Shown: piece after piece, positions 852 to 31,526 of the stretch
Position numbering within the stretch: position 1 is the first letter of the stretch
Layout of the letters: each line of letters starts with the position of its first letter
DNA from: a virus
Lineage: Duplodnaviria; Caudoviricetes
DNA: 34,362 nt
Strand: one strand, 5' to 3'
Virus record (IMG/VR): IMGVR_UViG_3300025356_000005
Coordinates: 1-34,362 of that record
The notes under the pieces: model-generated
What the model saw: the letters and a program-made list of their open reading frames with translations, nothing else
What the model was told of the DNA's origin: nothing
The model's database searches: none
Translations under genes and position numbers: made by a program

Positions 852-1058
852 TTATTTAGATCGCTTTTTTTCAATGTCCCAAGTTCCATTTGACCACATT
901 TGAATCTGATCACTTCTAAAATGTCTAATGTCTCCTCCTTTTCGTAGGACTACGGTATAAATATCATTCCCCCAAGTTCCTCCAGATTGCATATAAAACA
1001 AGTACCCGTCACCTAAAGGTGTAACTACTTCTATTGGGGTTTTGAACTCATGTATCAT
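852..1058 (-). CDS. Small hypothetical protein, paralogue of 33913..34122
   Basis: 68 aa; shares PI..TP.GDG...Y..SGT..ND...V.L..G..RHFRSDQI.M..N.T.DI-like pattern with the ORF at 33913..34122. Confidence 0.75.
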   Translation of the reverse strand: MIHEFKTPIEVVTPLGDGYLFYMQSGGTWGNDIYTVVLRKGGDIRHFRSDQIQMWSNGTWDIEKKRSK

Positions 1059-1888
1059 TATTTACTCCATATTGGTTTGAAACCAAGATCATCAAACACC
1101 ATGTCTTCATAAGGTGCTTTATCGGACATATTGGAGATTGTTGCCTTTAGCTTTGGACAATATGCAAATTTATCGCCATGCCTATCAATGCAATTTAAGC
1201 AGGTTGGGATGTAATCGGCATTTTTTGACTTATCTTTCTTGTGATCCCACTTTCCATTTATTTTTTCGTATCTATCCTGATCCGGCATTAATCCATTTTC
1301 TTCAAGATACTGATAAATGTCATCATCTGTCCAATCTTTCATCAAGTATAAGCTGATTGGAGATCCTTCAGCATACCTAATATCCATAGACAATGGAACA
1401 TGGCCTTTTATCGGGTCTGTATCGCAGTACTTTGTTCCAATATAAACAGAAGTCCAAGGCCAATTGAATGAGCCTGTCGGACGCGCAAGGAAATCAATAC
1501 CACAAAGGAACTTTTCGTCTCCAATTGGCCTTTCTGTTCCAAGTGATAGTACAATAGCTTTGCTTCCCCATTGAAAATACTTGAGTAAATCAAACCGCAT
1601 CTCTCCTGTGTTAACATCAGGGCCATCGGCTAGTGCAACCTTGCTAGGAGGATAATCGTATACCTCAAGATCCCATCTCTTGATCAGCTTGTCGCTGTAT
1701 TCATATCTTTCCCTAAAATTAGGCTCCCTAAATTGTATGACAGGAAGATCAATATCACATTGGAACCTTAAAAAATGAAGCAACGCAGTTGAATCTTTTC
1801 CTCCGCTCCAAAGGATTACTGATTTTGGCCACCGTTTGTTCCACTCTTTTGCTTTTTCTTTAGTTTTATTTATTAATATATTATTCAT
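1058..1888 (-). CDS. PAPS-reductase-family (PP-loop adenine nucleotide alpha-hydrolase) protein
   Basis: ILWSGGKDSTALL PP-loop and W(T)DDDIYQYL..NGL motif. Start moved to ATG 1888 (or GTG 1891), just after the upstream stop. No C-terminal ECGLH motif. Confidence 0.8.
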   Translation of the reverse strand: MNNILINKTKEKAKEWNKRWPKSVILWSGGKDSTALLHFLRFQCDIDLPVIQFREPNFRERYEYSDKLIKRWDLEVYDYPPSKVALADGPDVNTGEMRFDLLKYFQWGSKAIVLSLGTERPIGDEKFLCGIDFLARPTGSFNWPWTSVYIGTKYCDTDPIKGHVPLSMDIRYAEGSPISLYLMKDWTDDDIYQYLEENGLMPDQDRYEKINGKWDHKKDKSKNADYIPTCLNCIDRHGDKFAYCPKLKATISNMSDKAPYEDMVFDDLGFKPIWSK

Positions 1889-1892
1889 CACT

Positions 1893-2420
1893 CTAAATAA
1901 TAATAGCCGCTCCCAAAGCAGCACCACCTGCCGCAGCACCAGATCCCATCATTGAATTTTTGCTTACTTGGTTTTGAGCCGATGCACTCATCATTGCTTG
2001 CTGATAATTCTGCCAATCTTGTTGTTCTTTATTAACCGCTTGAGAAGTGGTTCCCATCATCTGGTTAATCCAATCAGTAGTTGACTGGAGATTTCCCTGC
2101 GCTGTTTGATAGCCGCCTTTACGGGCTGCATTGCGTTGTGCCAAAGCATTTGCCTGTGCTTGTTGAGATGCGGCAACGGCGGCTGCCGGATCAATTCCAG
2201 CAACAGGAGCAGCTCCAATAGCTTGTGCGGCCTGTGCCAGATTCTGCGCCCTTAAAGCCTGTGCTTGTTGGGTTGCTTGATCAAAAAATCCAGACTTTCC
2301 AATCGTGCTATCTTGCAATCCAGTACCTAGATAATTCTGTAAGCCTTGAGTTTTAGTCCATTGACCTAATTCATTCTGCCAAGAAAATGGATTAACTTGA
2401 TTTGCAGTAGTTCCATCCAT
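1893..2420 (-). CDS. Putative ejection/DNA-transfer protein
   Basis: Q/A-rich helical protein ending in hydrophobic glycine zipper GSGAAAGGAALGAAIII, as in podovirus ejection (pilot) proteins. Confidence 0.6.
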   Translation of the reverse strand: MDGTTANQVNPFSWQNELGQWTKTQGLQNYLGTGLQDSTIGKSGFFDQATQQAQALRAQNLAQAAQAIGAAPVAGIDPAAAVAASQQAQANALAQRNAARKGGYQTAQGNLQSTTDWINQMMGTTSQAVNKEQQDWQNYQQAMMSASAQNQVSKNSMMGSGAAAGGAALGAAIII

Positions 2421-9878: not shown

Positions 9879-10271
9879 TTAGTCTTTGTCGGTTGTTGAT
9901 TCTGATGCGGCTTTTAGCCCCATGTCGATGGCATCTTCATCGTTAGGCTCGTTGGATTTATTTTCCTCAGATTCTGTAGATTCTCCGGCCTTGATGCCGT
10001 GGATCTCAAGCTCAGTCGTGTAGCGGTTCTCTTCCTTGCCGTTGATCGTGATCTTTTCCTCACGCTCCATTACTTTCTTGTAATGGATGATTGCTGTCCC
10101 TTCCTTGGGGAGATCTTTCAACTCAGCTTTATTATGGAACCAGAGACAAGGGTAATGAATGTGCGTGTCAGCCTCTGTCTCAACTTTCTCAATGTGTCCT
10201 TGTCCCTTTTGAGAAAGGTCTTCTCCAAGGTCGTGAAAGCCTTCAGGAATATGGATTTTATCGGATTTCAT
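9879..10271 (-). CDS. Acidic hypothetical protein with scaffold-like C-terminal motif DAIDMGL
   Basis: 130 aa, TAATTATG start context. Confidence 0.7.
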   Translation of the reverse strand: MKSDKIHIPEGFHDLGEDLSQKGQGHIEKVETEADTHIHYPCLWFHNKAELKDLPKEGTAIIHYKKVMEREEKITINGKEENRYTTELEIHGIKAGESTESEENKSNEPNDEDAIDMGLKAASESTTDKD

Positions 10272-14753: not shown

Positions 14754-15153
14754 GTGTCAGCAGATAGTCTTTGGGATCTCTGCGAAGCTCTGTAATGTGA
14801 GTCTCAGACTCCGGCAACTCTTGGTTGGATTCTATGCGTTGATCTTCGTCTAGGTGCTGAAGGACACTCATGCCCTTAAAATCAACTACTGCTTGACCAG
14901 TTAAAATTGTAGTGGTGATAGCGGCAAAAAACATGATCACAAGATTTGCCAATTCTGTTATTTCTTTGGCTTGCTCGGCATGGAAAAGAATCAATCCAGC
15001 CGAAATGCCAAAAACCAACAAAACGCATCCAGCTCCAGCCATTGCATAAATAGCTTTTTTTGAATCAAGAGGACGCTGTTTTAGCTTGTCCTCAATGATT
15101 GATTGTTTGGAATTTTTCAACAGATTAATGTCCCCTCTTTTGAACTTGTTCAC
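14737..15153 (-). CDS. Two-TM membrane protein, holin candidate
   Basis: Hydrophobic segments AIYAMAGAGCVLLVFGISAGLILF and LANLVIMFFAAITTTILTG; adjacent to the endolysin. Start placed at GTG 15153 (GTGA overlap). Confidence 0.55.
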   Translation of the reverse strand: MNKFKRGDINLLKNSKQSIIEDKLKQRPLDSKKAIYAMAGAGCVLLVFGISAGLILFHAEQAKEITELANLVIMFFAAITTTILTGQAVVDFKGMSVLQHLDEDQRIESNQELPESETHITELRRDPKDYLLTHDTAF

Positions 15154-15512
15154 AGGGCGAATCGCCAAGCTGTTTTAATCCCGATATATCCCACAACGCA
15201 CAGGATGGAGACAATAGCAATTCCCCTCCAGAACCAGAGTTCTTTCAGAGCCTTCTCTTGCTTGCTGTGCCAATAGACAACATCGTTTTGAGCCTTGGCT
15301 AAATCCTTTGCTTGTTGGTCAACTTGTACCTCGTATGCCGTAATAGCCGACTCTAAATTGCTGATAGCTTTCTGTCCCTCTGGCTTCACCAATGGCTTGA
15401 GCTTCTCAACCGAAGTGCGAACTGCCACAACAGATGGAGCAATGTATGTAGTTTTCTCAGGATGAGCGCATCCGGCAATTAGCAATGCCGCCAGCAGGAG
15501 AAGTTTCTTCAT
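15150..15512 (-). CDS. Lipoprotein with C-terminal TM helix; unimolecular-spanin-like
   Basis: MKKLLLLAALLIAG-C lipobox, coiled-coil middle, C-terminal TM WFWRGIAIVSILCVVGYIGI; lies in the lysis cassette. Confidence 0.65.
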   Translation of the reverse strand: MKKLLLLAALLIAGCAHPEKTTYIAPSVVAVRTSVEKLKPLVKPEGQKAISNLESAITAYEVQVDQQAKDLAKAQNDVVYWHSKQEKALKELWFWRGIAIVSILCVVGYIGIKTAWRFAL

Positions 15513-16036: not shown

Positions 16037-18361
16037 TTAGAACCTAATATACCAAGGGAAGCCAAGCAAGGTAGAAAGGAATCCTTTGTTTGAATTTCCA
16101 GTTGGAATGTTAACCTCAAATGAGGTTGATCCATTATACATTCCAGCATTTACATTTCCAAGTGAGTTTTGATACCATGAGTTTTGCAGGGATGCCGCAG
16201 ATTTGTAAGTTGCCTTTCCTTGGATAACAGCATGATCGTTATACGCCGTGTCTTGGAAAACAACATTACCATACAAGACTGCATTTTCTACACCTTGATT
16301 TCCTGAGAATAAGAAACCATTGGTTGCTGTAATAGAGATGTTTTGGATATTTGAATTATTTGCAGTAACGCTGTTTATGGTCGGATTAGCGGTTCCGCTA
16401 TTTGTCGTAATGCCAATAGTTGGAGCAATAAACACATCTGTAGAGGCATCTGGAAGCTCTTGCGTACCCTCTGCATTAATTGGGCGAGTGGTGAAAGTGT
16501 TGTCAGTCCACCAGTTTGAAGTGTTGCTGAAATCGCCATTACCAGCACCACCAAGAGAAACAGTATCATTGAACCATTGAGGGCTTACGGCGGGCCAACC
16601 AAGATAGGTTACGCTTCCAGCAACAGTCCCACCAATTGGGAATTGACCATTTCCTCCATCGTAATAAATCGTGGCATTACCAAGAATAGATCCAAATGCC
16701 CTAGAGCTATCTCGCATCGTCACATTGCCATCAACAACAGAAGTTAAAGCAAGTTGTGAAGAATCGTGCATTGAAACTCCATCTGTCGTGGCTCCTGCCA
16801 TCACAGAAGATCCCTGCATATTTACTACGCCAGTTGATTGAAGCGTCAGTCCTGCTCCAAAATCAGCAGACCAGAAATTCGCATCATGGCAAAAGCATTG
16901 ATTAGCCCCTTGTGTGTTCTGCGTTACTGGGCCATAAAGATTAACAATATGTGTGCTATCTGGAAGTGCCGTAGCTTGGATAGTAAATCCAGCATCTTGC
17001 CACCAGTTTAGAAGATTACCCCAATCTCCATCTTCTTGAGCATTGTTGTAATACAGCTTATTAAAAGGATATGTTAATCCAGATCCATTATTATAAAGAT
17101 ATGTTATTTCTTGATCTGAAAGAACACGACTCCACACTCCAACTTCGTCTATTTGTGCTGGGTTTGTAACGAAATCTCCACCATTGCCAATTAAGAAATT
17201 AGTGCCAACAGCCGTAGAGTTGTCAGCTACAGAAGTAATTAAAGAACCATCTACATAAAGAGATATATTTGAACCATCAGCAACTCCAACGCAAAAATGC
17301 CAATTCCCATCATTATATGATGCACCAGTTGTATTTGCAGTTGTTGCAGAAGGGGCTTGAAAATAAATATCTCCGTTAATTCCAATTAACCTAAATCCAC
17401 CCGAACTGCCCACAGAATTTGCAATCCCTCCCCAAGGTCCAGAAGATGTAGTGTTTATCCATCCCGAAAAAGAGATCGGAGTATTTGCGGAAAATACTGA
17501 AGAAGTTTGAAGATAATTACTGCCATTAAAAACAGCATCTCCTGCAATAATGCCTGTTCCTAAAGTAACATTATTATTGTTTGTAAGAGTATATCCATTC
17601 CCCGTTGAATCAACAAGGCTAACACCTCCAGAACCATTATCATTAAGATTCCAGTAGGATTTGCATCCAGCCGTTAGTGGAACAGGAAGTGGGTTTGTGA
17701 AAGGATAGGTGTTTCCTAAACCTCCATAGTAAAGATCATATACTTCGGTTGAAGATAATGCACGACTCCAAACTCCAATTTCGTCTATTGTTCCGTAATA
17801 TACCCCATCATTAGAAGCACTATTACCAATCGTAAATAGCCCATTATTCCAAAGTCCATTTGAACTATAGTTAAATATATTTCCAGATTGAACACCATTT
17901 ATATATACAGAAATTGTATTAGTTGACGCATCTCTTATACAGCCAACAAAATTCCATTGATTTAATGTTAATGGAGATGCGGATACTGCTGACGGAAATC
18001 CTGCTCCATCATAAATTATAGTTATTAAATATCCATTTTCATCAATACGAAGTTCTTGACCAACTGTTGAATCTCCATAAAAAATATCATTTATATTATT
18101 TGGGCCTCCACCAAATTGAGTAGGGTAAACCCAACAAAAATACGAAAAAGAACCATTTGGATCATAAGTAAGACCTGTTGAAAAACTATCAGATCCATTA
18201 AAAACAGCACCTCCTCCAATAATTCCAGTTCCTAGCGTAACTCCATTATTGTTTGTTAGTGTATATCCATTCCCCGTTGAATCAACAAGGCTAACACCTC
18301 CAGAACCATCATCATTAAGATTCCAGTAGGCTAAAATGTCAACTAACAGGGGTGATGACAT
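16037..18361 (-). CDS. Virion adhesin/decoration protein with two LamG (concanavalin-A-like) domains and a beta-helical C-terminal part
   Basis: Two YWNLND...IDE[IV]GVWSR.LS..E LamG units, two GD[WF]....NWW.D...LPD repeats, hydrophobic C-terminal tail FLSTLLGFPWYIRF. Confidence 0.8.
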   Translation of the reverse strand: MSSPLLVDILAYWNLNDDGSGGVSLVDSTGNGYTLTNNNGVTLGTGIIGGGAVFNGSDSFSTGLTYDPNGSFSYFCWVYPTQFGGGPNNINDIFYGDSTVGQELRIDENGYLITIIYDGAGFPSAVSASPLTLNQWNFVGCIRDASTNTISVYINGVQSGNIFNYSSNGLWNNGLFTIGNSASNDGVYYGTIDEIGVWSRALSSTEVYDLYYGGLGNTYPFTNPLPVPLTAGCKSYWNLNDNGSGGVSLVDSTGNGYTLTNNNNVTLGTGIIAGDAVFNGSNYLQTSSVFSANTPISFSGWINTTSSGPWGGIANSVGSSGGFRLIGINGDIYFQAPSATTANTTGASYNDGNWHFCVGVADGSNISLYVDGSLITSVADNSTAVGTNFLIGNGGDFVTNPAQIDEVGVWSRVLSDQEITYLYNNGSGLTYPFNKLYYNNAQEDGDWGNLLNWWQDAGFTIQATALPDSTHIVNLYGPVTQNTQGANQCFCHDANFWSADFGAGLTLQSTGVVNMQGSSVMAGATTDGVSMHDSSQLALTSVVDGNVTMRDSSRAFGSILGNATIYYDGGNGQFPIGGTVAGSVTYLGWPAVSPQWFNDTVSLGGAGNGDFSNTSNWWTDNTFTTRPINAEGTQELPDASTDVFIAPTIGITTNSGTANPTINSVTANNSNIQNISITATNGFLFSGNQGVENAVLYGNVVFQDTAYNDHAVIQGKATYKSAASLQNSWYQNSLGNVNAGMYNGSTSFEVNIPTGNSNKGFLSTLLGFPWYIRF
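17589..18330. repeat. 70-bp direct repeat (17589-17658 and 18261-18330) at the start of each LamG module
   Basis: gtatatccattccccgttgaatcaacaaggctaacacctccagaaccat[t/c]atcattaagattccagtagg, 69/70 identical, 672 bp apart. Confidence 0.95.
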
Positions 18362-18363
18362 AA

Positions 18364-18597
18364 TTAGCTAGTTACAATAGAAGTTAGATTGTTTGAACCA
18401 TCGTAGGAAAGCGTTAGTGTAGCTACCGTTGCTGATCCATTTTTCAACACAATCGTCTGAGGCTTATCTGCGGCAACATAATTAGAAAGTTGAACGCCTG
18501 TGTATGGAGGAAGGTTGAGTCCGGCAATACTTTCTACTTTTTCAAGTACTAGATGCCGGAACTTTGCTGTGTCGAGTGTGGAAGGAATATCAGACAT
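18364..18597 (-). CDS. Small structural/decoration-like protein
   Basis: Start moved to ATG 18597 (MSDIPS); ends VATLTLSYDGSNNLTSIVTS; follows the capsid gene. Confidence 0.65.
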   Translation of the reverse strand: MSDIPSTLDTAKFRHLVLEKVESIAGLNLPPYTGVQLSNYVAADKPQTIVLKNGSATVATLTLSYDGSNNLTSIVTS

Positions 18598-18628
18598 AAA
18601 ATTGTTTTGGTAGTTAATAATCAGTTGA

Positions 18629-18664
18629 GGTAGCTGGTGCAAGTATTAACTCACACCAGCCACC
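18629..18664 (-). terminator. Long hairpin after the capsid gene (terminator or processing/stabilising stem)
   Basis: GGTGGCTGGTGTGAGT-TAAT-ACTTGCACCAGCTACC, 16-bp stem with G-U pairs; no strong U tract follows. Confidence 0.55.
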
Positions 18665-18676
18665 GATAACTAACTA

Positions 18677-19885
18677 TTACAGACCAGTCGAACTAGTGCT
18701 GCAAGGGAGCGGCGCACCATCAAATGGGCAACGCTTGAACAGAACAGGAACCACATTCTGCGGGCGAATCGGTTGGATCGCACGCTGGATCTGGTAGATG
18801 TGCTGTCCGAAGTCACCATAGAGGTTACAATCGTTGTCGCGGAAGTAAGTCCACTCCAGCTCACCCATAGCGAGTTGAGGAGCAAAGCGGAACGTACCCT
18901 CACCGACATAACTCTCAGGAATCAGACGCTTGAAAGCCTCGCCAGCGATGACGAAACCAACCTCGTAAGGAGCATTGACCCATGCAGGGTTACGGCGTTG
19001 AGCAAAACCGTTTGTGACGGCGGTGCTGACGATAGGATTCACAAGGACGAGATTGCCGGAGCCATCGAATCCAGTAGCGCGAAGGGGCTGCTGATCGATA
19101 CCGAAGGCAAAGCCACGATAACCTTGGAACTGATAACCAGCGATGCTGTCCTCACCGAGCTTGAAGCTACCAGCGGTGAGATAGAGCAGGTCTTCCTTAA
19201 CGTCCGCATCATTACGGATGTTTTCGATAGCGTCTGCGCCGAGCATCACTTGGAAGAACTCGCCTTCCTTAGAAGCAAAAGGCTCTGCAAGCATCTCTTC
19301 ACGAAGGAAGGTTCCGATGCGATACAGGGTCTTGAAGTTCAGAGGGCCATCTGGAAGGATAGCGGCGAACTTGGTGTTGATCTGCTGCATATCACCCGTG
19401 AGGTTGCTGTTGAAGCTCTGGGTGGTATTGACAACATACTTAACGCCGGACTGGATCAGGTACTGATAACGAATATCAGCATTGATGAGCTGGAGGATGG
19501 TCTTCTCAAGCGAAACCTGCGCTTGGAGGTACGAACCCTTGAAAGCGGTACGAGCCTGCTTCACGCAGACGCGAGGGCCAGCTCCACGAAGGGTCTGAAG
19601 GTTGAACTGATACTCCGTGCTACCCACAACGTCAGGAGTCGCGCCAACGCCGCAAAGCGTGGTGTCGTCAACGAACGTAGGAGCTGCAAGCGAAGCAGCA
19701 GGAACAGCCATTTCCTCAACGATGCTACGAACCGTGTCAGAGACATTCGGAAGCGTGCCACCATCGATGGAGTTAATATAAGGAGACTTGCGAGCAAGAA
19801 CCTTTGCGATCTGACCAATGATGCGGTTAACATCCTTGGAGGCAAAGTTCTGGATTGTGGCAAGTGGGATGCAATTATTCGACAT
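18677..19885 (-). CDS. Major capsid protein
   Basis: 402 aa with strongly biased, high-expression codon usage. Downstream of scaffold, preceded by a long leader and followed by a hairpin. Assignment rests on size, position and codon bias. Confidence 0.8.
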   Translation of the reverse strand: MSNNCIPLATIQNFASKDVNRIIGQIAKVLARKSPYINSIDGGTLPNVSDTVRSIVEEMAVPAASLAAPTFVDDTTLCGVGATPDVVGSTEYQFNLQTLRGAGPRVCVKQARTAFKGSYLQAQVSLEKTILQLINADIRYQYLIQSGVKYVVNTTQSFNSNLTGDMQQINTKFAAILPDGPLNFKTLYRIGTFLREEMLAEPFASKEGEFFQVMLGADAIENIRNDADVKEDLLYLTAGSFKLGEDSIAGYQFQGYRGFAFGIDQQPLRATGFDGSGNLVLVNPIVSTAVTNGFAQRRNPAWVNAPYEVGFVIAGEAFKRLIPESYVGEGTFRFAPQLAMGELEWTYFRDNDCNLYGDFGQHIYQIQRAIQPIRPQNVVPVLFKRCPFDGAPLPCSTSSTGL

Positions 19886-20094
19886 TTTGAGTTTTGGTTA
19901 GTTTCCCTGTATCCATCACAACCATTTGGAGGTGACAAACACAGGAGTACGGCAGTCGCGTGCGACTACGATACGAAGTTTGGGTTTGGTCACTCTCCGG
20001 CACGCTGAGAGCTTTGTTTGCGGCCTGTGCGGTGGATCTTGCGGCTCCCACCAGAGCCACCTTCATACGGAGAAGGCACACCGAGTTATGCGAA
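19886..20094 (-). promoter_or_regulatory. Structured ~200-nt 5' leader of the capsid gene
   Basis: Consecutive minus-strand hairpins (GCCTTC/GAAGGT, GGCTC/GAGCC, CTCTC/GAGAG, AGTCGC/GCGACT, 14-bp CCTGTGTTTGTCAC/GTGATGGATACAGG). Candidate promoter TTGACC-17-TAATAG at 20123-20095. Confidence 0.5.
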
Positions 20095-20097
20095 CTA

Positions 20098-20778
20098 TTA
20101 GCAATTACCTAATTGGTGGTCAACATTATTTTTAACATTAAGAAGATTTTCTTTCATTATCTTAATACGATATTCATTTGGAATTGTTGTCAGGTGAGCC
20201 AAAAAACAATTCTCATTCCAAGGAACAGCTATTTCACGCTCTTCGTTTACCCTGTATTTCTTTGCTATCTCTGGAACTGAATTAAGATAATTCCTTGGAA
20301 GCACATGAATAAGCTCAGGGTTGGAATCTAGTATAAAGTTTAATGTCCTCTGCTCTTGCTCTGAATGATCAAGGAACATCTTTGATCCAAACTGGACAAA
20401 CTCTTCATAGAGATCCTTTAGCTTGCTTGTATTGTATAAAACAAAGTTTCCGGCAGAGATTGTCGTGCAATCTATCCAGTCCAGAGATGCGCTGAACGGC
20501 TTGTCTGAGTCCCTGAAGTCATCGATCTCATAATTGAAATTGGTAATGAAAGCGTCTGCATCTATCCACATTACGGCATCGTAATCCCCGACATGATCAA
20601 ATGCGGCTATTGCCCTTTCAAATCCTAATCTCCTTCCAAACAATTGATGGTCATATCCAAGAGGGATAGATTTCAATTCGTACCCATGATATTTGCAGTA
20701 CGCAACTTTTGAAGGCATGGATGCACTTAGAACACTATACATTTCAGCACTAGATCCTGTAAGTAAAAGCGTTTTCAT
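20098..20778 (-). CDS. Glycosyltransferase, GT34 (GMA12/MNN10)-like
   Basis: K..YC..HGY, YDAVMWIDAD (DxD), ISAGNFV, EQ..L and FLAH motifs. Confidence 0.75.
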   Translation of the reverse strand: MKTLLLTGSSAEMYSVLSASMPSKVAYCKYHGYELKSIPLGYDHQLFGRRLGFERAIAAFDHVGDYDAVMWIDADAFITNFNYEIDDFRDSDKPFSASLDWIDCTTISAGNFVLYNTSKLKDLYEEFVQFGSKMFLDHSEQEQRTLNFILDSNPELIHVLPRNYLNSVPEIAKKYRVNEEREIAVPWNENCFLAHLTTIPNEYRIKIMKENLLNVKNNVDHQLGNC

Positions 20779-21497
20779 TTTGGAAGTTCTCCATTAAAGC
20801 TATACCAAGCACCTTCGTATTCAACAATGCTATTGGGAGCCGGAGTGAATACCTCTTGTATTAGAGGTTTTCTGAGTGCTGCGGCTATCCAAAACGAGCT
20901 AGATTGATTGCCAACAAATAGATCCGCACCTTGGATTGCCTTTGCAACATCTAGGCAGCTTTCTGTTGGGTAATACTCAATGTTTCCAATCTTTTCACAA
21001 AAGTCTTCGTACTCTTGTTTTGTCCCGCAAAACAAACTTTGCTTTCTATAGCGATCTAAAACCTTATCCCAACGGAAATTATGGTTTCTGTAGCGAGGTG
21101 TCCTGTTAAAAATAACACGCCCTTTTGTTAACACATCCGGCTCAACCTTTATCCAAGGCTCTGTTATCTCAAGATGTCCAGTTTTTCTCTGTACAATGTT
21201 AAGATACCTAGCTTGTGCATCAAGCAATGAAACATTATCTTCATAGCACTCGCGCCAAGGAGACATATCACAATCAATAGGCCCAACAGAGCAATCAAAA
21301 CATACATTAATCCCTTGGCTCTTGAGTAGCGGCTCAATGGAATCATATTTGAAACCCCGCATAGGAGCCATCCATGACTCGTCTTGTATTAGCAGCTTTG
21401 TGCCTCCTAGCCTCTGGTATGAAGGCAAGAAGGCAATGATGTCACCAATATGACCAGTATGCCTAAATACTTTTCCCTTCTGGAATGGATTTGTCAT
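20775..21497 (-). CDS. Glycosyltransferase, GT9 (heptosyltransferase RfaF/WaaF)-like GT-B fold
   Basis: G.IGD...LP N-terminus and L.....I..ADLFVGNQSS...IAAAL..P C-terminal motif. Confidence 0.75.
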   Translation of the reverse strand: MTNPFQKGKVFRHTGHIGDIIAFLPSYQRLGGTKLLIQDESWMAPMRGFKYDSIEPLLKSQGINVCFDCSVGPIDCDMSPWRECYEDNVSLLDAQARYLNIVQRKTGHLEITEPWIKVEPDVLTKGRVIFNRTPRYRNHNFRWDKVLDRYRKQSLFCGTKQEYEDFCEKIGNIEYYPTESCLDVAKAIQGADLFVGNQSSSFWIAAALRKPLIQEVFTPAPNSIVEYEGAWYSFNGELPK

Positions 21498-22086
21498 CCT
21501 TTGGTGTTACCAGATCCCTCATGATGTCGGAACGCTTTTCTTCTGGAGAAGATTTGGCGTGATGTAGCAAAGGTAGGACTGGATACAGGTCGCTATTCAC
21601 TCCAAGAATAGTAGCTTCTTCACGCACATGATCTCCATCAAGCAGGTCATCCTGAATGAATTTCTTGATCACATTAACGCAATGATCCTGAGTGGCGTAG
21701 AAGACATAAGCAGGGACGCTGGCGTTGATTTGGAGAGTCGCATCTTTCTCGTATTCAGTTGCCTGTTCAGGTTTGAAATCAAGATTGGCGACATCGTAAT
21801 CAGACATCCATCCGCCTCCGGCGGCGTGCAAGGCACACCAGCGTGAGAAACGGGATGTGATCCATTGAACCCTAGACCTGAGAGTTTCAGGAATTCCTAG
21901 TGCCTGCTTGGTGAGTTTTGCCTGCAATTTCAAGTACAGCGGACTGCCTTGAGCGTGTGAGCGGTTAAGCATGACAGGCTCCCATCCATTGGCAGTCCAG
22001 CTATGCTTCCAGTAGTTGGCGCAATTAAACTCCTCCGGCTGGTTGGCTAGAGGGATTGATTCGTAATATGCGTATATTTTTTTCAT
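21463..22086 (-). CDS. Glycosyltransferase, GT32/OCH1-like DxD family
   Basis: SW...GW and R..AL...GG.WMSDYD motif, matching the R...L...GG.Y.DxD signature. Confidence 0.6.
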   Translation of the reverse strand: MKKIYAYYESIPLANQPEEFNCANYWKHSWTANGWEPVMLNRSHAQGSPLYLKLQAKLTKQALGIPETLRSRVQWITSRFSRWCALHAAGGGWMSDYDVANLDFKPEQATEYEKDATLQINASVPAYVFYATQDHCVNVIKKFIQDDLLDGDHVREEATILGVNSDLYPVLPLLHHAKSSPEEKRSDIMRDLVTPKDDKSIPEGKSI

Positions 22087-23156
22087 TAGTATGTTTTGTA
22101 TCCAACGTGGAAGACTGGCAGTCCCAAGTCTAGGTGTGACTGGTGTCCGGCTTCCTTTGCACGTTTGCAGAAAGAAACATCTTCCCCGTGTGCGCTGTCA
22201 AATGGCCTAAAGTAATCGTAGTCGTAGTCAGGCACATCAATTTTTAGCGAGTCACCAAACTTGGCGCGGATGTCCTCAAACACCTTGCGGTGGATTAGGA
22301 TGCAACCTGTTCCTACCCAATCGACCTCAACAACCTTGTCCTCATACGCACGGGCGCGAGGAGCTAGTGTCTGATCGCTTGCCATCAATGCTCCTCCTTC
22401 CTGCCTACCGAAGTAGGAAGCTCCTACAAGCGTTTTTCCTGCTCCAACTAGGCGATGAAGCACATGACGCTGGAGAGGAAGGTCTGCGAGGCTCCTAGCG
22501 GCCTGTACCCAGTACCTAAACCATGCTGGTCGTCCGATACATGGAATAATGTCGTCATCGATCATCATCAGCCACTTGGCATTGGTTTCAAGGAACTTGT
22601 GTGCCAGCCTGTTACGAGCGTGTTCAATCTTGCTGTCTCCGATAGCCATGTCGAAGCGGATCTTATCCCGCCCGAAATCTAATGCCATAGCGACCTGACA
22701 AGCCGCTGTGACAGGATTGCTAGACTTGTACCAAGGCCAGCCAACAAAGATGTCGCGACCAGCAAACTCACAGCGATATGAAGGAAGCCCTTCAGTTGAT
22801 CTACTCTCATGGATTGGATTTTCAAATACTGGTGCTGGAGTTTCTGCAAGTGCCTTGGGTTTTCTTCCGCGCTTTGGCTTTTCTCCATACTGCTTGTCTT
22901 CCTCTCGCAAATTATCCAAAACCTTATCCAGTACCTTATTTTCTTCAGGAGTAGTTTCACGAATTTGAATTTCTGGTTCTGGCTCTGGTTTTAATTCCTG
23001 TGAATTCGCGGGAATTACAAGCCCAACGACAGGCTGAACAGGCTTTCCATCAAGTCGTTTTGGAGGAGGGATAGGTGTCTGGAATGGATCAAATGATTCC
23101 AGAGCGCGGTTTGTCCTCTCCACCATCGGAGTGCTAATCGGATCTTGTGGAGTCAT
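22086..23156 (-). CDS. Glycosyltransferase, GT2-like (GT-A) with ~125-aa disordered N-terminal extension
   Basis: ARN.L...FL, WLMMIDDD, VGTGCILIHR.VF and GEDVSFC.RA...G motifs. Confidence 0.8.
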   Translation of the reverse strand: MTPQDPISTPMVERTNRALESFDPFQTPIPPPKRLDGKPVQPVVGLVIPANSQELKPEPEPEIQIRETTPEENKVLDKVLDNLREEDKQYGEKPKRGRKPKALAETPAPVFENPIHESRSTEGLPSYRCEFAGRDIFVGWPWYKSSNPVTAACQVAMALDFGRDKIRFDMAIGDSKIEHARNRLAHKFLETNAKWLMMIDDDIIPCIGRPAWFRYWVQAARSLADLPLQRHVLHRLVGAGKTLVGASYFGRQEGGALMASDQTLAPRARAYEDKVVEVDWVGTGCILIHRKVFEDIRAKFGDSLKIDVPDYDYDYFRPFDSAHGEDVSFCKRAKEAGHQSHLDLGLPVFHVGYKTY

Positions 23157-23158
23157 GG

Positions 23159-24469
23159 TTATTCTCCGGCCTCGTCCAGACCAAGATCAATGGCATCGCT
23201 GGCAGACATCTTGATTCGGGAGTTAAGATCGTTGTTCTTGATAGAAGACGGTGTACTGACGTTCTGCTTTGGCATCTTGCCGGATGCTTTCAGCTTGCTG
23301 TTCTCGTTAGCTAGTCGCTCCAATTCAGCCTGTAGCTGTGCCTTGGCCTGCTGTTCATGCCTTAGTTGACCAGTAAGCTGATGACTAAGTACGGCAGCGG
23401 CGGCTACGGCGGCACGATCCTCGGCAGTCTGGGGCCAGAGTGCGCTGTTAAACTTCTGTTGGAGATCAGCAACTACATTGTTGTGTTCCTTGATCCTATC
23501 AATCTGTTCAGGAGTCTCATCACCCTTGAACTGCTGGTATCTTGCCCAAGGGACTTCCTTGGTGATGTTTTCCACATAGTCATGAATCTGTGTGGTTTCT
23601 TTCTGATACCATTCTTGTGACTGGTTCTGACGCTGTGCAAGGATCTCCTCTGCGTGTTCAGCGGCATGAGCGATCTCTCCCTCCTGCTTTTCTTTAAGGT
23701 CGGTGACATCAATCAATCCGCGCTTAATACGCTCCTGATCGGTCATGGGTAGCTTAGAAAGAGTTTGCTGCCACCACTTGTCGTCAATCTTGTCCGGCCC
23801 TCCAGCCTTTTCAATGGATGAGATTACCTCATCTGTAGCACCATGCTTTTTCATGGTGTTGTAGATCGTCTGCTTCGCGCTTTCGATTGGCTGAGTGTAC
23901 TTGCTCTGGAACTCAGGATCGTTCTTGATGTCAAAGATCTGCTTGAACTTCTTCAGCTCCTCGTAGTCTTGAGGAGTCTGTGCCGGACGCTGTTCGGCCT
24001 CGGCAAGCCTCTGCTTTAGGACTTCGGCTTCTGCCGCTTGCTTTTTGTAGAGGGAGGCAGTTTCTTGGAGTTTTTTCCAGTTGTTTTGGTTTTTCTCTGA
24101 GAGGTTCCTCGGCTGTTCGATGGCGAGGATTTCTGGGTCGATTTCGACTTCGGGCTTACGAACGCTTTCGGTGTTTGTAGAGGAGGCAGGGTCTGCGGAA
24201 GCAGGTTCGGCAGCACGTTCGCTGGATGATTCCACAGGTGCTTGCGGAGTTTCGTCGCCAAGGTTTTCAAGAGTTGAATTATCTTCATGTGTTTGTGTTG
24301 GTTCGGGTGTCGGTTCGGTTGATACACCAGTCTCGCGTTCCGCTTCATCAAGGAGCGAATCGATTGACTCGTGTGTTGCTGGGCTGATCGGGTCAGCGTT
24401 TAGGTTTTCTGCTCCACCATCTGGGTTAGCAGCGGTGATTTCGGGTACTTGGTTTTCTGTGTCTTCCAT
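23159..24469 (-). CDS. Capsid scaffolding protein
   Basis: Acidic disordered N-terminus, coiled coils, position between portal and capsid genes. Confidence 0.65.
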   Translation of the reverse strand: MEDTENQVPEITAANPDGGAENLNADPISPATHESIDSLLDEAERETGVSTEPTPEPTQTHEDNSTLENLGDETPQAPVESSSERAAEPASADPASSTNTESVRKPEVEIDPEILAIEQPRNLSEKNQNNWKKLQETASLYKKQAAEAEVLKQRLAEAEQRPAQTPQDYEELKKFKQIFDIKNDPEFQSKYTQPIESAKQTIYNTMKKHGATDEVISSIEKAGGPDKIDDKWWQQTLSKLPMTDQERIKRGLIDVTDLKEKQEGEIAHAAEHAEEILAQRQNQSQEWYQKETTQIHDYVENITKEVPWARYQQFKGDETPEQIDRIKEHNNVVADLQQKFNSALWPQTAEDRAAVAAAAVLSHQLTGQLRHEQQAKAQLQAELERLANENSKLKASGKMPKQNVSTPSSIKNNDLNSRIKMSASDAIDLGLDEAGE

Positions 24470-24472
24470 AGA

Positions 24473-24712
24473 TTACATCGATGCGAACGAACCACTTGAC
24501 GCATCGTCGGCCTTGTTATCATCTGCGAGAATGTCGTCAATCTGACGCAGCACAAACTCACAGCCTTCCTTAAATTTTGCTTCAAGAGCAACGCTCTCGA
24601 TTGTCTTTCCTGTTGTATTAGGAACTTGAGCCTTCAAAAAGGCCAATAGCTTACCTCCACTCTTTTGGTGGTACTCGCGAAAACGCGACGAATCAGATTG
24701 TTCCCATTTCAT
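24473..24712 (-). CDS. Small conserved head-module protein (Bbp19-like position)
   Basis: Start moved to ATG 24712 (MKWEQ); GGKLL..L...A.FKEG...V...I pattern typical of the gene between portal and scaffold. Confidence 0.55.
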   Translation of the reverse strand: MKWEQSDSSRFREYHQKSGGKLLAFLKAQVPNTTGKTIESVALEAKFKEGCEFVLRQIDDILADDNKADDASSGSFASM

Positions 24713-24718
24713 AATTAA

Positions 24719-24772
24719 TGATTTATATGTAAAGACTTTGCCGATAATTCGGAAAGTTGATTTATATGTCAA
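24719..24772. repeat. Pair of 15-bp direct repeats enclosing an imperfect palindrome
   Basis: TGATTTATATGT[A/C]AA at 24719-24733 and 24758-24772; ACTTT(G)CCGA-TAAT-TCGGAAAGT at 24735-24757. Confidence 0.8.
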
Positions 24773-24786
24773 TAGTTAATTAATCA

Positions 24787-25143
24787 TTACCTAAGTCCTG
24801 ACTCAATAGCTTGCTGAGATGAAAGCAATGATGTGCTTGCATCACGACCAAAAGCATTAGGGTTCATAGCAGATGAGATTTTGTTCTTTGCCATGTTAAA
24901 CAACTCTTTGCCTGCACCAATGATTTCTTGGTCAATGTCATCCGACATTCCCTGTTTCTCAAGGCGAGCATAAGTTGCGGCCTCCTGTGCTTTTTCGGCT
25001 GGAGTCAGAGGAGCTGGAATTTTTTCCTTGTATGCTGGAAAATATGTTTCTTTCTTCAACTCAGGAAGATTAAGAGGTTCCACACGCTTCATCATGGTAG
25101 CGGTTTCGTAGCGAGGCTCGGTTTGTGTAGGTGATCCACCCAT
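24787..25143 (-). CDS. Hypothetical, probably virion-associated protein (MGGSP start, AIESGLR end)
   Basis: 118 aa directly after the portal gene. Confidence 0.65.
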   Translation of the reverse strand: MGGSPTQTEPRYETATMMKRVEPLNLPELKKETYFPAYKEKIPAPLTPAEKAQEAATYARLEKQGMSDDIDQEIIGAGKELFNMAKNKISSAMNPNAFGRDASTSLLSSQQAIESGLR

Positions 25144-25162
25144 AATAGTAGTTGGTTGTTTG

Positions 25163-27571
25163 TTAGGCTGCGGTTATTGGACGAGGAGGGTTAGCGATTG
25201 AGCTAACTGATCCAGATTGGTCTGGAGTTGTTGCGGCGTACTGTTGCTGAATTAGCTTTTGCTGTGCAACGCTAGGAGCGCGATGGCCTCCGGCATGGTG
25301 AGCATGAGCTGCGGCAGGTGCAATCTCTGGAGGAGGTGGCGTTCCATGTCCCGCAGTAAGGTGTGCGTGTGCGTCTCTATAAGCCTTCTTAAACGGCTCT
25401 AGCTGCTTCGGATTCGCGCCTTTCTTGCCTGCCGCATCAATGTGACCAGCGAAGTGCTGCATGGCCTTTGCAAGCGGTGCTGCGCCCTCTGGAGGCAGTC
25501 CTCCAGCCGGAATAGCCTGCACTACTGGCATTAGCTTCTGAACCATCGTCTGCAAGTGAATCATGTCATTGTCGCGTGCCGATACAGGAACCTCCTGACC
25601 AGCCATGATACTCTGAAGCTCAATGATCTGCTGGCGGGTAGCCTCAACAGCAAGTGCCTCAACCTGATCTTTCGGAAGAATGACACTATTGGCTACGTTC
25701 TCACCTAGCTTCTTACTCCAGTCCAATTTGATCAGCTCGTCCTGATTGATGTTCGGGTTGCCCGTATAACGCATGATCAGGTTATCAAGGATCATGTCAT
25801 CCTGCGGAGTTGTATCCTGCAAGAGTTGGCTTGCTGGGCTATATGCCATGAGAAGGATGTCGGAAGGAGGGCAGTTGCGCTCCATCATGTTCAAGCAGGC
25901 TGATACTGCGTCCTCATCCAAGTGAGGAGGGATCTCAAATGGAACCATGAATGCCGGAAGCTCCATGCTAGAACGATCAAATGCATCGACAACTTCGGCC
26001 TTCGCCCAGACTGCATTAGGCTCCTGCTGACGAACAATATCCAACTTCATCTTGAGAGTAGACGCTGCCTTGATGTGTTCAGGGTGGCAGATACCACGTT
26101 GCATACGCTCTACGGCCTGTGAAAACTGCCGTGAGAACCGCATAAGAATTCCCTCGCGTAGCTGATTTTCGATTGCAGCCACACGATTGACCTCACTTGC
26201 TGTCTTCTTTCCAGAGGATTGAAGCGGCGCGGTAGGAAGGAATGTTCCAACCTGTACCTCAGCCAGTTGGCTAATGAATTGATCAAGCTGGAGAAAGTCT
26301 TGGACATCGGCAGGTAGCTGTTGTGGGATGACTTCATAGCCTTCGGAAACGTAGCACACGGGGTGCGTCACGGTCAGCGGTGCAACTCCCACCTTTGCAT
26401 TCGGCCCCTTCTTTAGCAAAAGCATTCCCTTTAGGTAGGTATTATCGATAACAAGGTTACGAGCCTTCTCTACGGCAACGTGCGTATTATACAGATCGCG
26501 TCCTGCTCCACGGCTGGACATCAGATTGCCAGATCCAATCTCTACGGAGAACAATGCCAAGCACTCGGTCATCTTATTGTAGCGATCCACCTGCGTGCAG
26601 ATCTCTTCGCCGGACTTGTCGTCAAACAAGAACCTGCTAATCTTTCCATGTGGCTCTCTCACTAGGATCTCGCCTAGTTCGACGTATTTCGCGTCATTTT
26701 CGTAGCTGGCTCCATAGCTTCCTTCCCGAATCCAGTCTTCATATCGCCTTGCGTCATCGTCGGCATCAAGAGTCCTGCCAGCCGGAATAGCCGCATTGAT
26801 GCTCTTGACGAGGTTATTGATATGCCATCCGGCAGCGGCAGAAAGATCAGGAGTCTCTAATACTGGTAGAAGCTCTGCTATCTGATACCTACGCTTCCTC
26901 GCCCAGATAGGAGTCTGGTCAGTCACCTGCGGGGTTTCGATGCTGAAAAAGGTATAGTCTTGGCGAAGGAATTCAGGCTTCCAGTCGCGCAAGTCATCCC
27001 AAGTCAATCCGCAGAATCCAAAGGTAGTATTCTCATGGACTACTTGAGCAACAAGATCATCAAATCCCTTCCAGCCTCGGATGCACTTGGTAATCTCCTC
27101 GCGGAAGATCTTTGTCTTGTTGTCGGCATCTAGGCTTTCAATAGGGTAGGCGGCGAAAGTAAGCGTAGGAGAATTCTCTATAACCTGCCGGAAAGGTGGC
27201 TGGATACGGCTGATCATCGTGCTAATGAATCCCGTAGGGCGATTAGAACGCCAGCTCTGACCCATGCTCTCTAGTTTTTTGTTCTGATAGGGAGGCTCGT
27301 TGTTGAGCTTCTTCTGGATAAGCTGATTTTTCTTGTTGCGCTCGACATTCTGCTGCTTGAGGCGGCGGTATGCTGCGTGTGCCTGCGTAGCGTCCTTGAA
27401 TGTCCTGCGTACTTGAAGCGTATCCTTGTTAACCGTGTCCAAGCTCCCGTTGTCAGGGTTGACCACATCCAGTTCCAAGATCCTCGGCTTGTCATGTGCG
27501 TCAGCAACGCGAGGTGCGTGAGGCGCGAATGTGTCTGTGATCCTTGGAGGTAGTGGTTTTAGGTTTGCCAT
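25163..27571 (-). CDS. Portal (head-tail connector) protein
   Basis: 802 aa downstream of the terminase; KKTASEV.....motif and long helical C-terminal region with D....H motif, as in P22/N4-like portals. Confidence 0.75.
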   Translation of the reverse strand: MANLKPLPPRITDTFAPHAPRVADAHDKPRILELDVVNPDNGSLDTVNKDTLQVRRTFKDATQAHAAYRRLKQQNVERNKKNQLIQKKLNNEPPYQNKKLESMGQSWRSNRPTGFISTMISRIQPPFRQVIENSPTLTFAAYPIESLDADNKTKIFREEITKCIRGWKGFDDLVAQVVHENTTFGFCGLTWDDLRDWKPEFLRQDYTFFSIETPQVTDQTPIWARKRRYQIAELLPVLETPDLSAAAGWHINNLVKSINAAIPAGRTLDADDDARRYEDWIREGSYGASYENDAKYVELGEILVREPHGKISRFLFDDKSGEEICTQVDRYNKMTECLALFSVEIGSGNLMSSRGAGRDLYNTHVAVEKARNLVIDNTYLKGMLLLKKGPNAKVGVAPLTVTHPVCYVSEGYEVIPQQLPADVQDFLQLDQFISQLAEVQVGTFLPTAPLQSSGKKTASEVNRVAAIENQLREGILMRFSRQFSQAVERMQRGICHPEHIKAASTLKMKLDIVRQQEPNAVWAKAEVVDAFDRSSMELPAFMVPFEIPPHLDEDAVSACLNMMERNCPPSDILLMAYSPASQLLQDTTPQDDMILDNLIMRYTGNPNINQDELIKLDWSKKLGENVANSVILPKDQVEALAVEATRQQIIELQSIMAGQEVPVSARDNDMIHLQTMVQKLMPVVQAIPAGGLPPEGAAPLAKAMQHFAGHIDAAGKKGANPKQLEPFKKAYRDAHAHLTAGHGTPPPPEIAPAAAHAHHAGGHRAPSVAQQKLIQQQYAATTPDQSGSVSSIANPPRPITAA

Positions 27572-31450: not shown

Positions 31451-31526
31451 TGGCTACGGAGGTAGGGATCGAACCTACAACCAGCAGATCCAAATTCTGC
31501 TGCGCTACCAATTGCGCCACTCCGTA
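31451..31526 (-). tRNA. tRNA-Gln (anticodon UUG), CCA encoded
   Basis: TACGGAG TG GCGC AATTGGTA GCGC A GCAGA ATTTGGA TCTGC TGGTT GTAGG TTCGATC CCTAC CTCCGTA G CCA: 76-nt cloverleaf with U1-A72 and G73. Confidence 0.93.

Follow-up and report, generated by a model that had tools for sequence, protein, structure and literature searches.

Introduction

The closest described counterpart of the glycosyltransferase (GT) cassette analysed here is the O-glycosylation of mycobacteriophage virions. The cassette consists of four genes at positions 20098..23156 of the virus record IMGVR_UViG_3300025356_000005; the window, that is, the whole stretch of DNA analysed, is the entire record of 34,362 nt, with a completeness estimate of ~55%. 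Freeman et al. (2023) are said, in the papers that cite them, to have described mycobacteriophage virion O-glycosylation of the cluster O (Corndog gp35-38) and Che8 types.

In cluster O, an O-methyltransferase gene and three GT genes lie between the genes for portal and protease, and their products are expressed but were not found in virions (PMC4351075). The enzymes of this cluster are reported to modify the capsid and the tail tube (PMC11600133). The modifications are described as O-linked and located at C-termini in four citing papers (PMC11600133, PMC13445384, PMC12619734, PMC11256854), one of which places the glycans at C-termini specifically (PMC12619734). Among tailed phages, glycosylated virions are described as demonstrated in a few mycobacteriophages. 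No paper on the present lineage or its cassette was found in a literature search from which subscription papers were largely missing.

Here we propose that the soluble GT cassette acts late in infection and attaches O-glycans to the C-terminal tail, rich in Ser/Thr, of what is likely the major capsid protein, a reading to which we assign a probability of roughly 68%. The proposed and likely acceptor is the tail STSSTGL, which follows an invariant cysteine (Cys395). The argument comes from comparison of relatives: the locus has a constant front and a swappable back, the capsid tail covaries with the back, and the motifs of one front enzyme are often broken in phages that have lost the tail.

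The cassette and its flanking genes

The genes and motifs on which the argument turns are as follows.

23159..24469, minus strand: scaffold-like protein, 436 aa, between the portal-like and capsid-like genes; conserved ends, acidic, C-terminal motif SASDAIDLGLDEAG, no family match
22086..23156, minus strand: GT2-like glycosyltransferase, 356 aa; weak profile matches, DxD and xED motifs; likely the priming enzyme
22551..22559, minus strand: DxD motif of the GT2-like protein, D200-D201-D202, from alignment conservation
22179..22187, minus strand: xED motif of the GT2-like protein, G324-E325-D326, from alignment conservation
21463..22086, minus strand: GT-A-fold protein of a family without a name, 207 aa (glycogenin/GT8/GT32/GT44-like), with D96-Y-D98, from predicted fold and conservation; core gene
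20775..21497, minus strand: compact GT-B protein, 240 aa, with a predicted GT9/TibC heptosyltransferase-like fold; accessory slot gene
20098..20778, minus strand: GT34 glycosyltransferase, 226 aa, with D73-A-D75, PF05637 above cut-off; rare accessory slot gene
18677..19885, minus strand: likely major capsid protein, 402 aa, from position, strong conservation and Atlas features
18680..18700, minus strand: capsid C-terminal tail, S396-T-S-S-T-G-L402 after C395, picked out by covariation; proposed O-glycan acceptor

The cassette genes are real and glycosyltransferase-like. As reported in a first-pass annotation of this DNA, made from the sequence alone, they are consecutive and overlapping; they are minus-strand open reading frames (ORFs) of 356, 207, 240 and 226 aa. 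The overlaps measure 1, 35 and 4 nt; the first gene starts 2 nt past the scaffold-like gene and the last ends 212 nt before the capsid-like gene. The same annotation saw no obvious transmembrane segment, and in our analysis, too, all four proteins lack a transmembrane stretch (best 19-residue hydropathy 0.73-0.95) and are by prediction soluble. Its further statement that genes for nucleotide-sugar synthesis or DNA base modification are lacking nearby also held: a Pfam and PHROG scan of 32 window ORFs in this ~55% complete record returned no such family, apart from a PAPS-reductase-domain ORF.

Conservation of the locus across relatives

Capsid- and GT-based searches gave some 400 loci with 152 distinct capsids, and gene order was counted in the 114 loci in which both scaffold and capsid are in view, the window included. 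The GT2-like gene directly follows the scaffold in 114/114 loci, and the 207-aa GT-A gene is present in 109/114, the five exceptions being distant or reduced loci. Behind this pair, 18 layouts occur. The back slot contains the GT9-like gene, GT34, FkbM, MT11, MT23 or MT24 methyltransferases, a DUF6492 protein, an FGE-sulfatase-domain protein, members of four families that match nothing in Pfam, or nothing; the GT9-like gene is present as a single copy in 12/20 near-complete relatives and missing from the other 8. The cassette is a fixed trait of the lineage, with a constant front pair and a swappable back slot. Whether GT genes recur here in variable composition had been set as a check in the first-pass annotation, and they do; its idea that the cassette splits scaffold and capsid genes that are normally adjacent must be given up, as the two are adjacent in 0/114 loci. 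A recent insertion of the cassette is rejected likewise, the scaffold-capsid slot being empty in 0/114.

Several occurrences of related genes were noted alongside. The FGE-sulfatase-domain (lectin-like) protein of ~330 aa (L002, L011-L013, L016-L018, L021, L082 and others) is found nearly only in slots without back-slot GTs, one layout having both; it is perhaps a protein decoration that replaces the glycan. GT9-like, methyltransferase, GT34 and unassigned back-slot families also stand beside terminase- or portal-like genes (labels by size and position) in the unrelated contigs L244, L246 and L250, while L252 has back-slot families with no marker gene in view; some of the families in unrelated contigs occur as fusions. 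In relative G001, a second cluster, GT4-GT4-FkbM, lies among the tail genes (L096:3875-6498), and in G016 a related GT4 adjoins the terminase region. Among cultured phages, tblastn gave two weak matches to the GT2-like protein, one of them in Microcystis phage Mel-JY34 (PP438425.1; L405:5896-6591; 26%, E 6e-4), where the gene directly follows the capsid gene and is annotated as hypothetical. The capsid of this phage has no comparable Ser/Thr tail; Mel-JY34 is a possible culturable test case.

Covariation of the capsid tail with the back slot

The capsid-like protein shows Atlas features of 0.97 to Phage_capsid_3/4 clusters, with PF13252 on 18% of their members. Its tail was scored in 128 of the 152 distinct capsids; left out were 17 whose slot lies out of view, 6 truncated where their contig ends, and L229, a frameshifted capsid in which STSSTGL is readable in another frame. 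A tail with at least 4 Ser/Thr is found in 67 of the 68 rows that have a back-slot GT, as against 8 of the 60 that do not. The slots of the latter hide no unassigned GT-sized gene.

On a FastTree tree built without the tail, tail state and back-slot GT state each change 10 times. By parsimony the tail was eroded to fewer than 4 Ser/Thr about 10 times, and only ~0.9 of these erosions fall on branches that keep back-slot GTs, which make up 60% of the tree length (rough binomial p 0.002). In 40 Ser/Thr columns of the capsid body, taken as a control, the losses scale with branch length (47 vs 97 vs 4).

Further features of the capsid were seen. The capsids of L068-L073, which form one clade, contain an insert of 30-55 residues, rich in Ser, Thr and Asn, behind residue ~79, possibly a second acceptor loop. 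The capsid has six conserved cysteines, and the products of several virion genes are rich in Cys. A sulfhydryl oxidase domain of the Erv1/Alr family is present in 8/20 relatives (G001, G002, G004, G005, G006, G012, G018, G020) and in 0/14 control genomes, which suggests that these phages may drive disulfide formation in the cytoplasm.

Decay of the GT2-like motifs where the tail is lost

A second line of evidence comes from 117 GT2 domains, 114 of which could be scored at the DxD motif. The motif is intact in all 85 rows with at least 2 tail Ser/Thr and broken (DNN, AND or GND) in 20 of the 29 with at most 1; the sequence DDD is present in 0/24 rows that lack any tail Ser/Thr. The xED motif behaves in the same way, being kept in 87/87 rows with at least 2 tail Ser/Thr and in 1/25 rows with none. 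We take both motifs to be catalytic, as is presumably general in the family.

In two clades the decay is specific to this gene. In the largest tail-less clade the GT2-like protein keeps 0.76 of its conserved columns, compared with 0.97 for the second GT, 0.98 for the scaffold and 0.99 for the capsid; in a separate tail-less clade it keeps 0.70 (one sequence), compared with 0.93-1.00 for the others. These are therefore two clear independent cases that tie GT2 catalysis to the tail. The 207-aa GT-A enzyme, on the other hand, keeps its DYD in 28/30 rows with at most 1 tail Ser/Thr. Because this motif outlasts the tail, the four enzymes probably do not form the one linear pathway that the first-pass annotation had envisaged.

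Structure and family assignment of the cassette proteins

PF05637 matches the GT34 protein at E 1.1e-7 (32.4 bits, gathering cut-off 23) and is found on 31 of its 32 homologues. The GT9-like protein matches PF01075 at E 0.003 (17.3 bits, under the gathering cut-off of 22) and NCBIfam only at E 0.05. Its AlphaFold model has a mean predicted local distance difference test score (pLDDT) of 94.8 and retrieves TibC as the top Foldseek match (E 3.5e-7), together with a Veillonella GT9 and WaaC. In VIA alignments with TibC, Veillonella GT9, WaaC and WaaF the four Z scores of the model, from highest to lowest, are 14.7, 14.2, 14.0 and 13.4 (root-mean-square deviation (rmsd) 3.5-4.3 over ~215 residues), the values for TibC and WaaC being nearly tied; the next unrelated fold reaches only Z 8.3, and the predicted GT-B fold is thus nearest GT9/TibC. 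The profile of this protein collects 2,789 clusters at 50% identity, with many longer proteins, and several of the 16 clusters scanned carry further GT or methyltransferase domains as fusions.

The 207-aa protein has no hit in Pfam (E 0.1), PHROG or NCBIfam. Among the 120 listed of its 382 homologues, none is named beyond 'hypothetical' and none has a Pfam match. Its model (pLDDT 95.3) shows a GT-A fold, in which D96-Y-D98 is at least 90% conserved. Glycogenin leads the VIA comparison (Z 11.0, rmsd 3.3, 164 aligned residues), and an A64R-type GT scores Z 8.8, not above other GT-A folds; in Foldseek, SetA comes first (E 5e-3) and Och1 second (E 6.5e-3), with LtpM also near and no clear winner.

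The first gene is weakly indicated to be GT2-like by its profile matches, its Atlas neighbours and the GT2-like spacing of DxD and xED. PF13641 matches at E 0.002 (18.4 bits, cut-off 27) and is found on 3 of 44 aligned members, PHROG gives a glycosyltransferase match at E 0.002, and the Atlas neighbours carry PF00535 on 14% of their members; no PF00535 match was obtained in the 23 virus records searched. The catalytic domain is preceded by a variable, low-complexity N-terminal arm of ~125 aa, at whose start there is a short conserved motif, SPxE..T..AL.S.NPF (window 23030-23156). When PDB sequences were searched with profiles made from the GT2, 207-aa GT, GT9 and capsid alignments, nothing useful came up, leaving the capsid profile with no PDB relative, and a profile-profile comparison of the two core GTs detected no similarity.

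The family labels of the first-pass annotation accordingly fared unequally. GT34 is borne out, GT9-like stands by fold, GT2-like stands weakly, and GT32/OCH1 does not, being one of several tied neighbours. Absence of GT folds had been named as one finding that would refute the proposal; a GT-A fold (207 aa) and a GT-B fold (240 aa) are predicted, the GT34 protein is recognised by sequence, and the GT2-like one is recognised weakly.

Proposed mechanism

In the proposed mechanism, the GT2-like enzyme would prime a Ser/Thr of the tail with the first sugar, taken from a host nucleotide sugar. Extension, branching or capping of the chain would then fall to the GT9-like and GT34 enzymes, or in relatives to the other GTs and the S-adenosylmethionine (SAM)-dependent methyltransferases. 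Since these enzymes are swappable, the glycan borne by every capsid subunit would differ from phage to phage. Judging only from its fold, the GT9-like enzyme may use ADP-heptose from the host lipopolysaccharide (LPS) pathway. The 207-aa GT-A enzyme likely has another acceptor, probably another virion protein, because its motif stays intact after tail loss.

The donors are probably those of the host, because an NAD-dependent epimerase is found in 0/20 near-complete relatives; other sugar-synthesis families were covered by the Pfam scans of the window and of 117/226 protein clusters from five genomes. Stepwise assembly of an oligosaccharide on the capsid or on Ser/Thr-rich appendages had been suggested from the window itself. 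Soluble phage GTs and host donors gain support from the comparison, and the target narrows to the capsid tail; a single stepwise oligosaccharide pathway does not. The benefit can only be guessed at, and might be shielding (from proteases, grazers or binding to host surfaces) or particle stability.

A bolder version, which we regard as speculative and rather doubtful, is a programmable capsid 'serotype': in a podovirus-like lineage of probably diderm hosts (e.g. Verrucomicrobiota), a new cytoplasmic peptide O-glycosyltransferase would prime a seven-residue capsid tag, and a swapped back slot, shared with unrelated phages, would add heptose-containing, methylated chains derived from host LPS. 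If true, it would offer a portable minimal tag-enzyme pair and O-antigen-like diversity on phage heads.

Evidence against the capsid tail and alternative targets

A number of points weigh against the capsid tail as acceptor. The cassette is known here from genes alone, and no glycan has been seen. The identity of the capsid protein is indirect, coming from position, high conservation and Atlas features. The threshold of at least 4 Ser/Thr was picked post hoc, with the data already seen, and decreases of any size show no asymmetry (4.8 vs 9.4 vs 5.3). Independent events are few: well-supported branches offered 3 pairs to an independent-pairs test (median p 1), too few for significance, with none in the opposite direction. 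L047 is a true exception, with back-slot GTs and no tail, and in eight rows a full tail goes with a back slot devoid of GTs; the sharing of one operon can by itself give rise to some of the covariation. As for the motif decay, a single clade supplies 22 of the 29 rows scored for GT2 that have at most 1 tail Ser/Thr, and the tree shows 4 changes of DxD state. The divergence of the GT2-like protein is matched by that of the scaffold in the L363/L365 and STAAT clades (0.88 vs 0.84; 0.83 vs 0.85), and L043, L046 and L024, whose tails are down to a single Thr, have intact GT2 motifs. The correlation between pairwise capsid and GT2-like protein distances is weak (rho 0.28, 46 loci). In tail-less phages the latter is still conserved at ~51% identity and therefore has some other role or a changed specificity. 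A complex prediction for the capsid and the GT2-like protein scored 0.01 against a mark of 0.32, its controls not having folded, and was not used either way.

The operon linkage leads to the view that the cassette glycosylates other virion proteins, such as Ser/Thr-rich fibre, LamG or tail proteins, the covariation with the capsid tail being hitch-hiking. Several window proteins are indeed 17-23% Ser+Thr, GT4 and FkbM genes occur among the tail genes of G001, and the top Foldseek match of the GT9-like protein, TibC, is a protein heptosyltransferase that acts on beta-rich adhesins. As an account of the whole cassette this is unlikely: capsid-body Ser/Thr columns do not follow slot content, and in two tail-less clades the decay is confined to the GT2-like protein, with scaffold, second GT and capsid conserved. 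For the second GT, with its persistent DYD, other virion proteins remain likely targets. The persistence of the GT2-like protein with a broken DxD in 20 rows, its conserved N-terminal arm motif and the sharing of GT-A folds with nucleotidyltransferases (MobA, IspD, Z 7-9) could also mean that the core pair serves head assembly mainly in a non-catalytic or small-molecule role and that only the back-slot genes are true GTs. We give this very little credence, given that DxD and xED are strictly retained wherever the tail has at least 2 Ser/Thr and that none of the GT proteins bears the scaffold-type C-terminal motif.

Targets outside the virion fit worse than the capsid tail. Late remodelling of host LPS or another envelope glycan from the cytoplasmic side, blocking superinfection or keeping progeny from binding to debris, would suit the fold of the GT9-like protein, which is that of LPS core heptosyltransferases, enzymes that have no transmembrane helices. 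A swappable cassette also fits a receptor arms race, and envelope remodelling has been proposed for the GT islands that pelagimyophages and cyanophages carry (PMC7029224, PMC12801897). Yet the slot has no membrane or GtrA-type gene, an integrase is found in 0/20 near-complete relatives, and the joint decay of capsid tail and GT2 motifs would be left unexplained, making this quite improbable. Hypermodification of phage DNA around packaging, with sugars placed on hydroxymethylated bases, has a precedent in phage DNA GTs, which are similar to LPS enzymes, are able to transfer heptose and are encoded close to structural genes (bioRxiv 10.1101/2023.12.21.572611). About 45% of the genome represented by the window is unseen, and in the 20 near-complete relatives Tet/JBP is found in 2, TAGT in 6, C5-methylase in 2 and TS-like genes in 0, counts from which diverged oxygenases may escape; marker searches do miss some partners, because 5/6 TAGT genomes give no Tet hit. 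The core pair is nevertheless present in 20/20, of which 11 show no TS-like, Tet, TAGT or C5-methylase gene; no C5-methyltransferase, 5mYOX/TET or TS-like hydroxymethylase was found in the scaffold-capsid slot, and TAGT and Tet genes lie outside it where inspected. Since the covariation of the capsid tail would again be unexplained, a DNA target appears very improbable. Glycosylation of the capsid tail is the reading that we retain.

The TAGT genes (G008-G010, G012, G013, G015) and Tet/JBP genes (G006 among them) mostly do not occur together; they make up a patchy module for DNA modification, separate from the cassette, in which some oxygenases perhaps go unrecognised. One C5-methylase domain (G011:C1:60435-61355) lies within a 2,388-aa open frame, probably a large internal virion protein.

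Gene order, particle type and host

The minus strand reads terminase-like (33477), LamG/MBG protein, ParB, Cys-rich 199-aa protein, portal-like 802-aa protein, two small genes, scaffold-like 436-aa protein, the four cassette genes, capsid-like 402-aa protein, LamG and fibre proteins, lysis genes and tail-tubular-like genes. The capsid-, scaffold-, portal- and terminase-like ORFs have no naming hit in Pfam, PHROG or NCBIfam, and these labels come from gene position, conservation and Atlas features. In tblastn searches of cultured phages the capsid, portal-like and GT9-like proteins had no match, and the terminase gave two marginal ones.

The 20 near-complete relatives measure 57-71 kb, with direct terminal repeats in 10/20. 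A podovirus-like particle is suggested because a protein of 2,300-3,700 aa lies downstream of the tail genes in 5/5 relatives inspected in full and because window proteins have weak PHROG matches to internal-virion and head-closure families. A window ORF at 15150-15512, next to a GH108 lysin and a holin-like gene, has a lipoprotein-like N-terminus and a C-terminal hydrophobic helix. It is a candidate for what we take to be a one-piece spanin, which points to a diderm host; the host is probably diderm. The sole match in a GTDB search was a 13-kb contig in a Chthoniobacter metagenome-assembled genome that carries four GT9 genes, a match that could be a binning error, and protein names in the sequence clusters indicated no host.

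A promoter and terminator scan of 18300-25200 remained at chance level (9 vs 8.9; 9 vs 6.7). The only Rfam hit in the window was a tRNA, tRNA-Gln(TTG) at 31451-31526, just past the terminase-like gene. The PAPS-reductase-domain ORF lies among the tail genes (window 1058-1939) and is also matched in G016.

The C-terminal motif of the scaffold-like protein

The C-terminal motif of the scaffold-like protein, S..DAID.GL (23159-23200), recurs at the C-terminus of small proteins unrelated to it, here of a 118-aa and a 130-aa window ORF (24787-24830, 9879-9940). Across the loci it hits 92 non-scaffold ORFs (a redundant count), compared with 0/13,875 reversed ORFs. By analogy with encapsulins, it is possibly a targeting signal for capsid cargo. 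Packaging of the GTs as cargo by this route was rejected, as no GT carries the motif.

Comparison with known systems

If the proposed reading holds, virion glycosylation is a trait fixed in an abundant lineage of uncultured phages and is carried out by enzyme families not found among the known cases. Comparison supplies what most cassettes of this sort lack: a candidate acceptor (a seven-residue tail), a candidate for the priming enzyme and variants with a natural loss of function. The reading is therefore testable with one peptide and one soluble enzyme, phage culture being unnecessary. It also cautions that GTs in head operons should not be annotated as host-modifying auxiliary genes.

Several systems share single features with the cassette. 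The Gtr serotype-conversion operons (GtrA/GtrB/GtrX) are likewise phage GT clusters with a constant and a variable part, including a GT2, whereas the cassette has neither membrane proteins nor an integrase and lies late, in the head operon. DNA hypermodification clusters (C5-methyltransferase with 5mYOX/TET and a GT; TAGT) also use phage GTs related to LPS enzymes, and TAGT and Tet occur in the lineage; here, however, such markers are patchy and apart from the cassette, and more than half of the cassette genomes show none, as counted above. The TibC/AAH protein heptosyltransferases and the GT9 LPS heptosyltransferases (WaaC, WaaF) have the fold predicted for the 240-aa protein, but the latter is ~100 residues shorter, shares 12-16% identity with them and falls under the Pfam and NCBIfam cut-offs. 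In capsid glycosylation of chlorovirus PBCV-1 (A64R-type GT, PDB 2p6w/2p72/2p73), virus-encoded cytoplasmic GTs act on the major capsid protein; this is a eukaryotic virus, with Asn-linked glycans.

Mycobacteriophage O-glycosylation is like the present case in having GT genes together with methyltransferase genes in the run of head genes (cluster O), soluble enzymes and host donors, and in the proposed position of the acceptor at the capsid C-terminus. It differs in that the cassette belongs to a podovirus-like gene set with a probable diderm host, includes a GT9/TibC-fold protein, a GT34 and an unnamed GT-A family, and combines a fixed front pair with a hypervariable back slot. A tblastn search with the GT2 domain and the GT9-like protein found no mycobacteriophage match at E 1e-3 among 50,697 phage records. 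By analogy, the cassette likely works as virion O-glycosylation does in mycobacteriophages.

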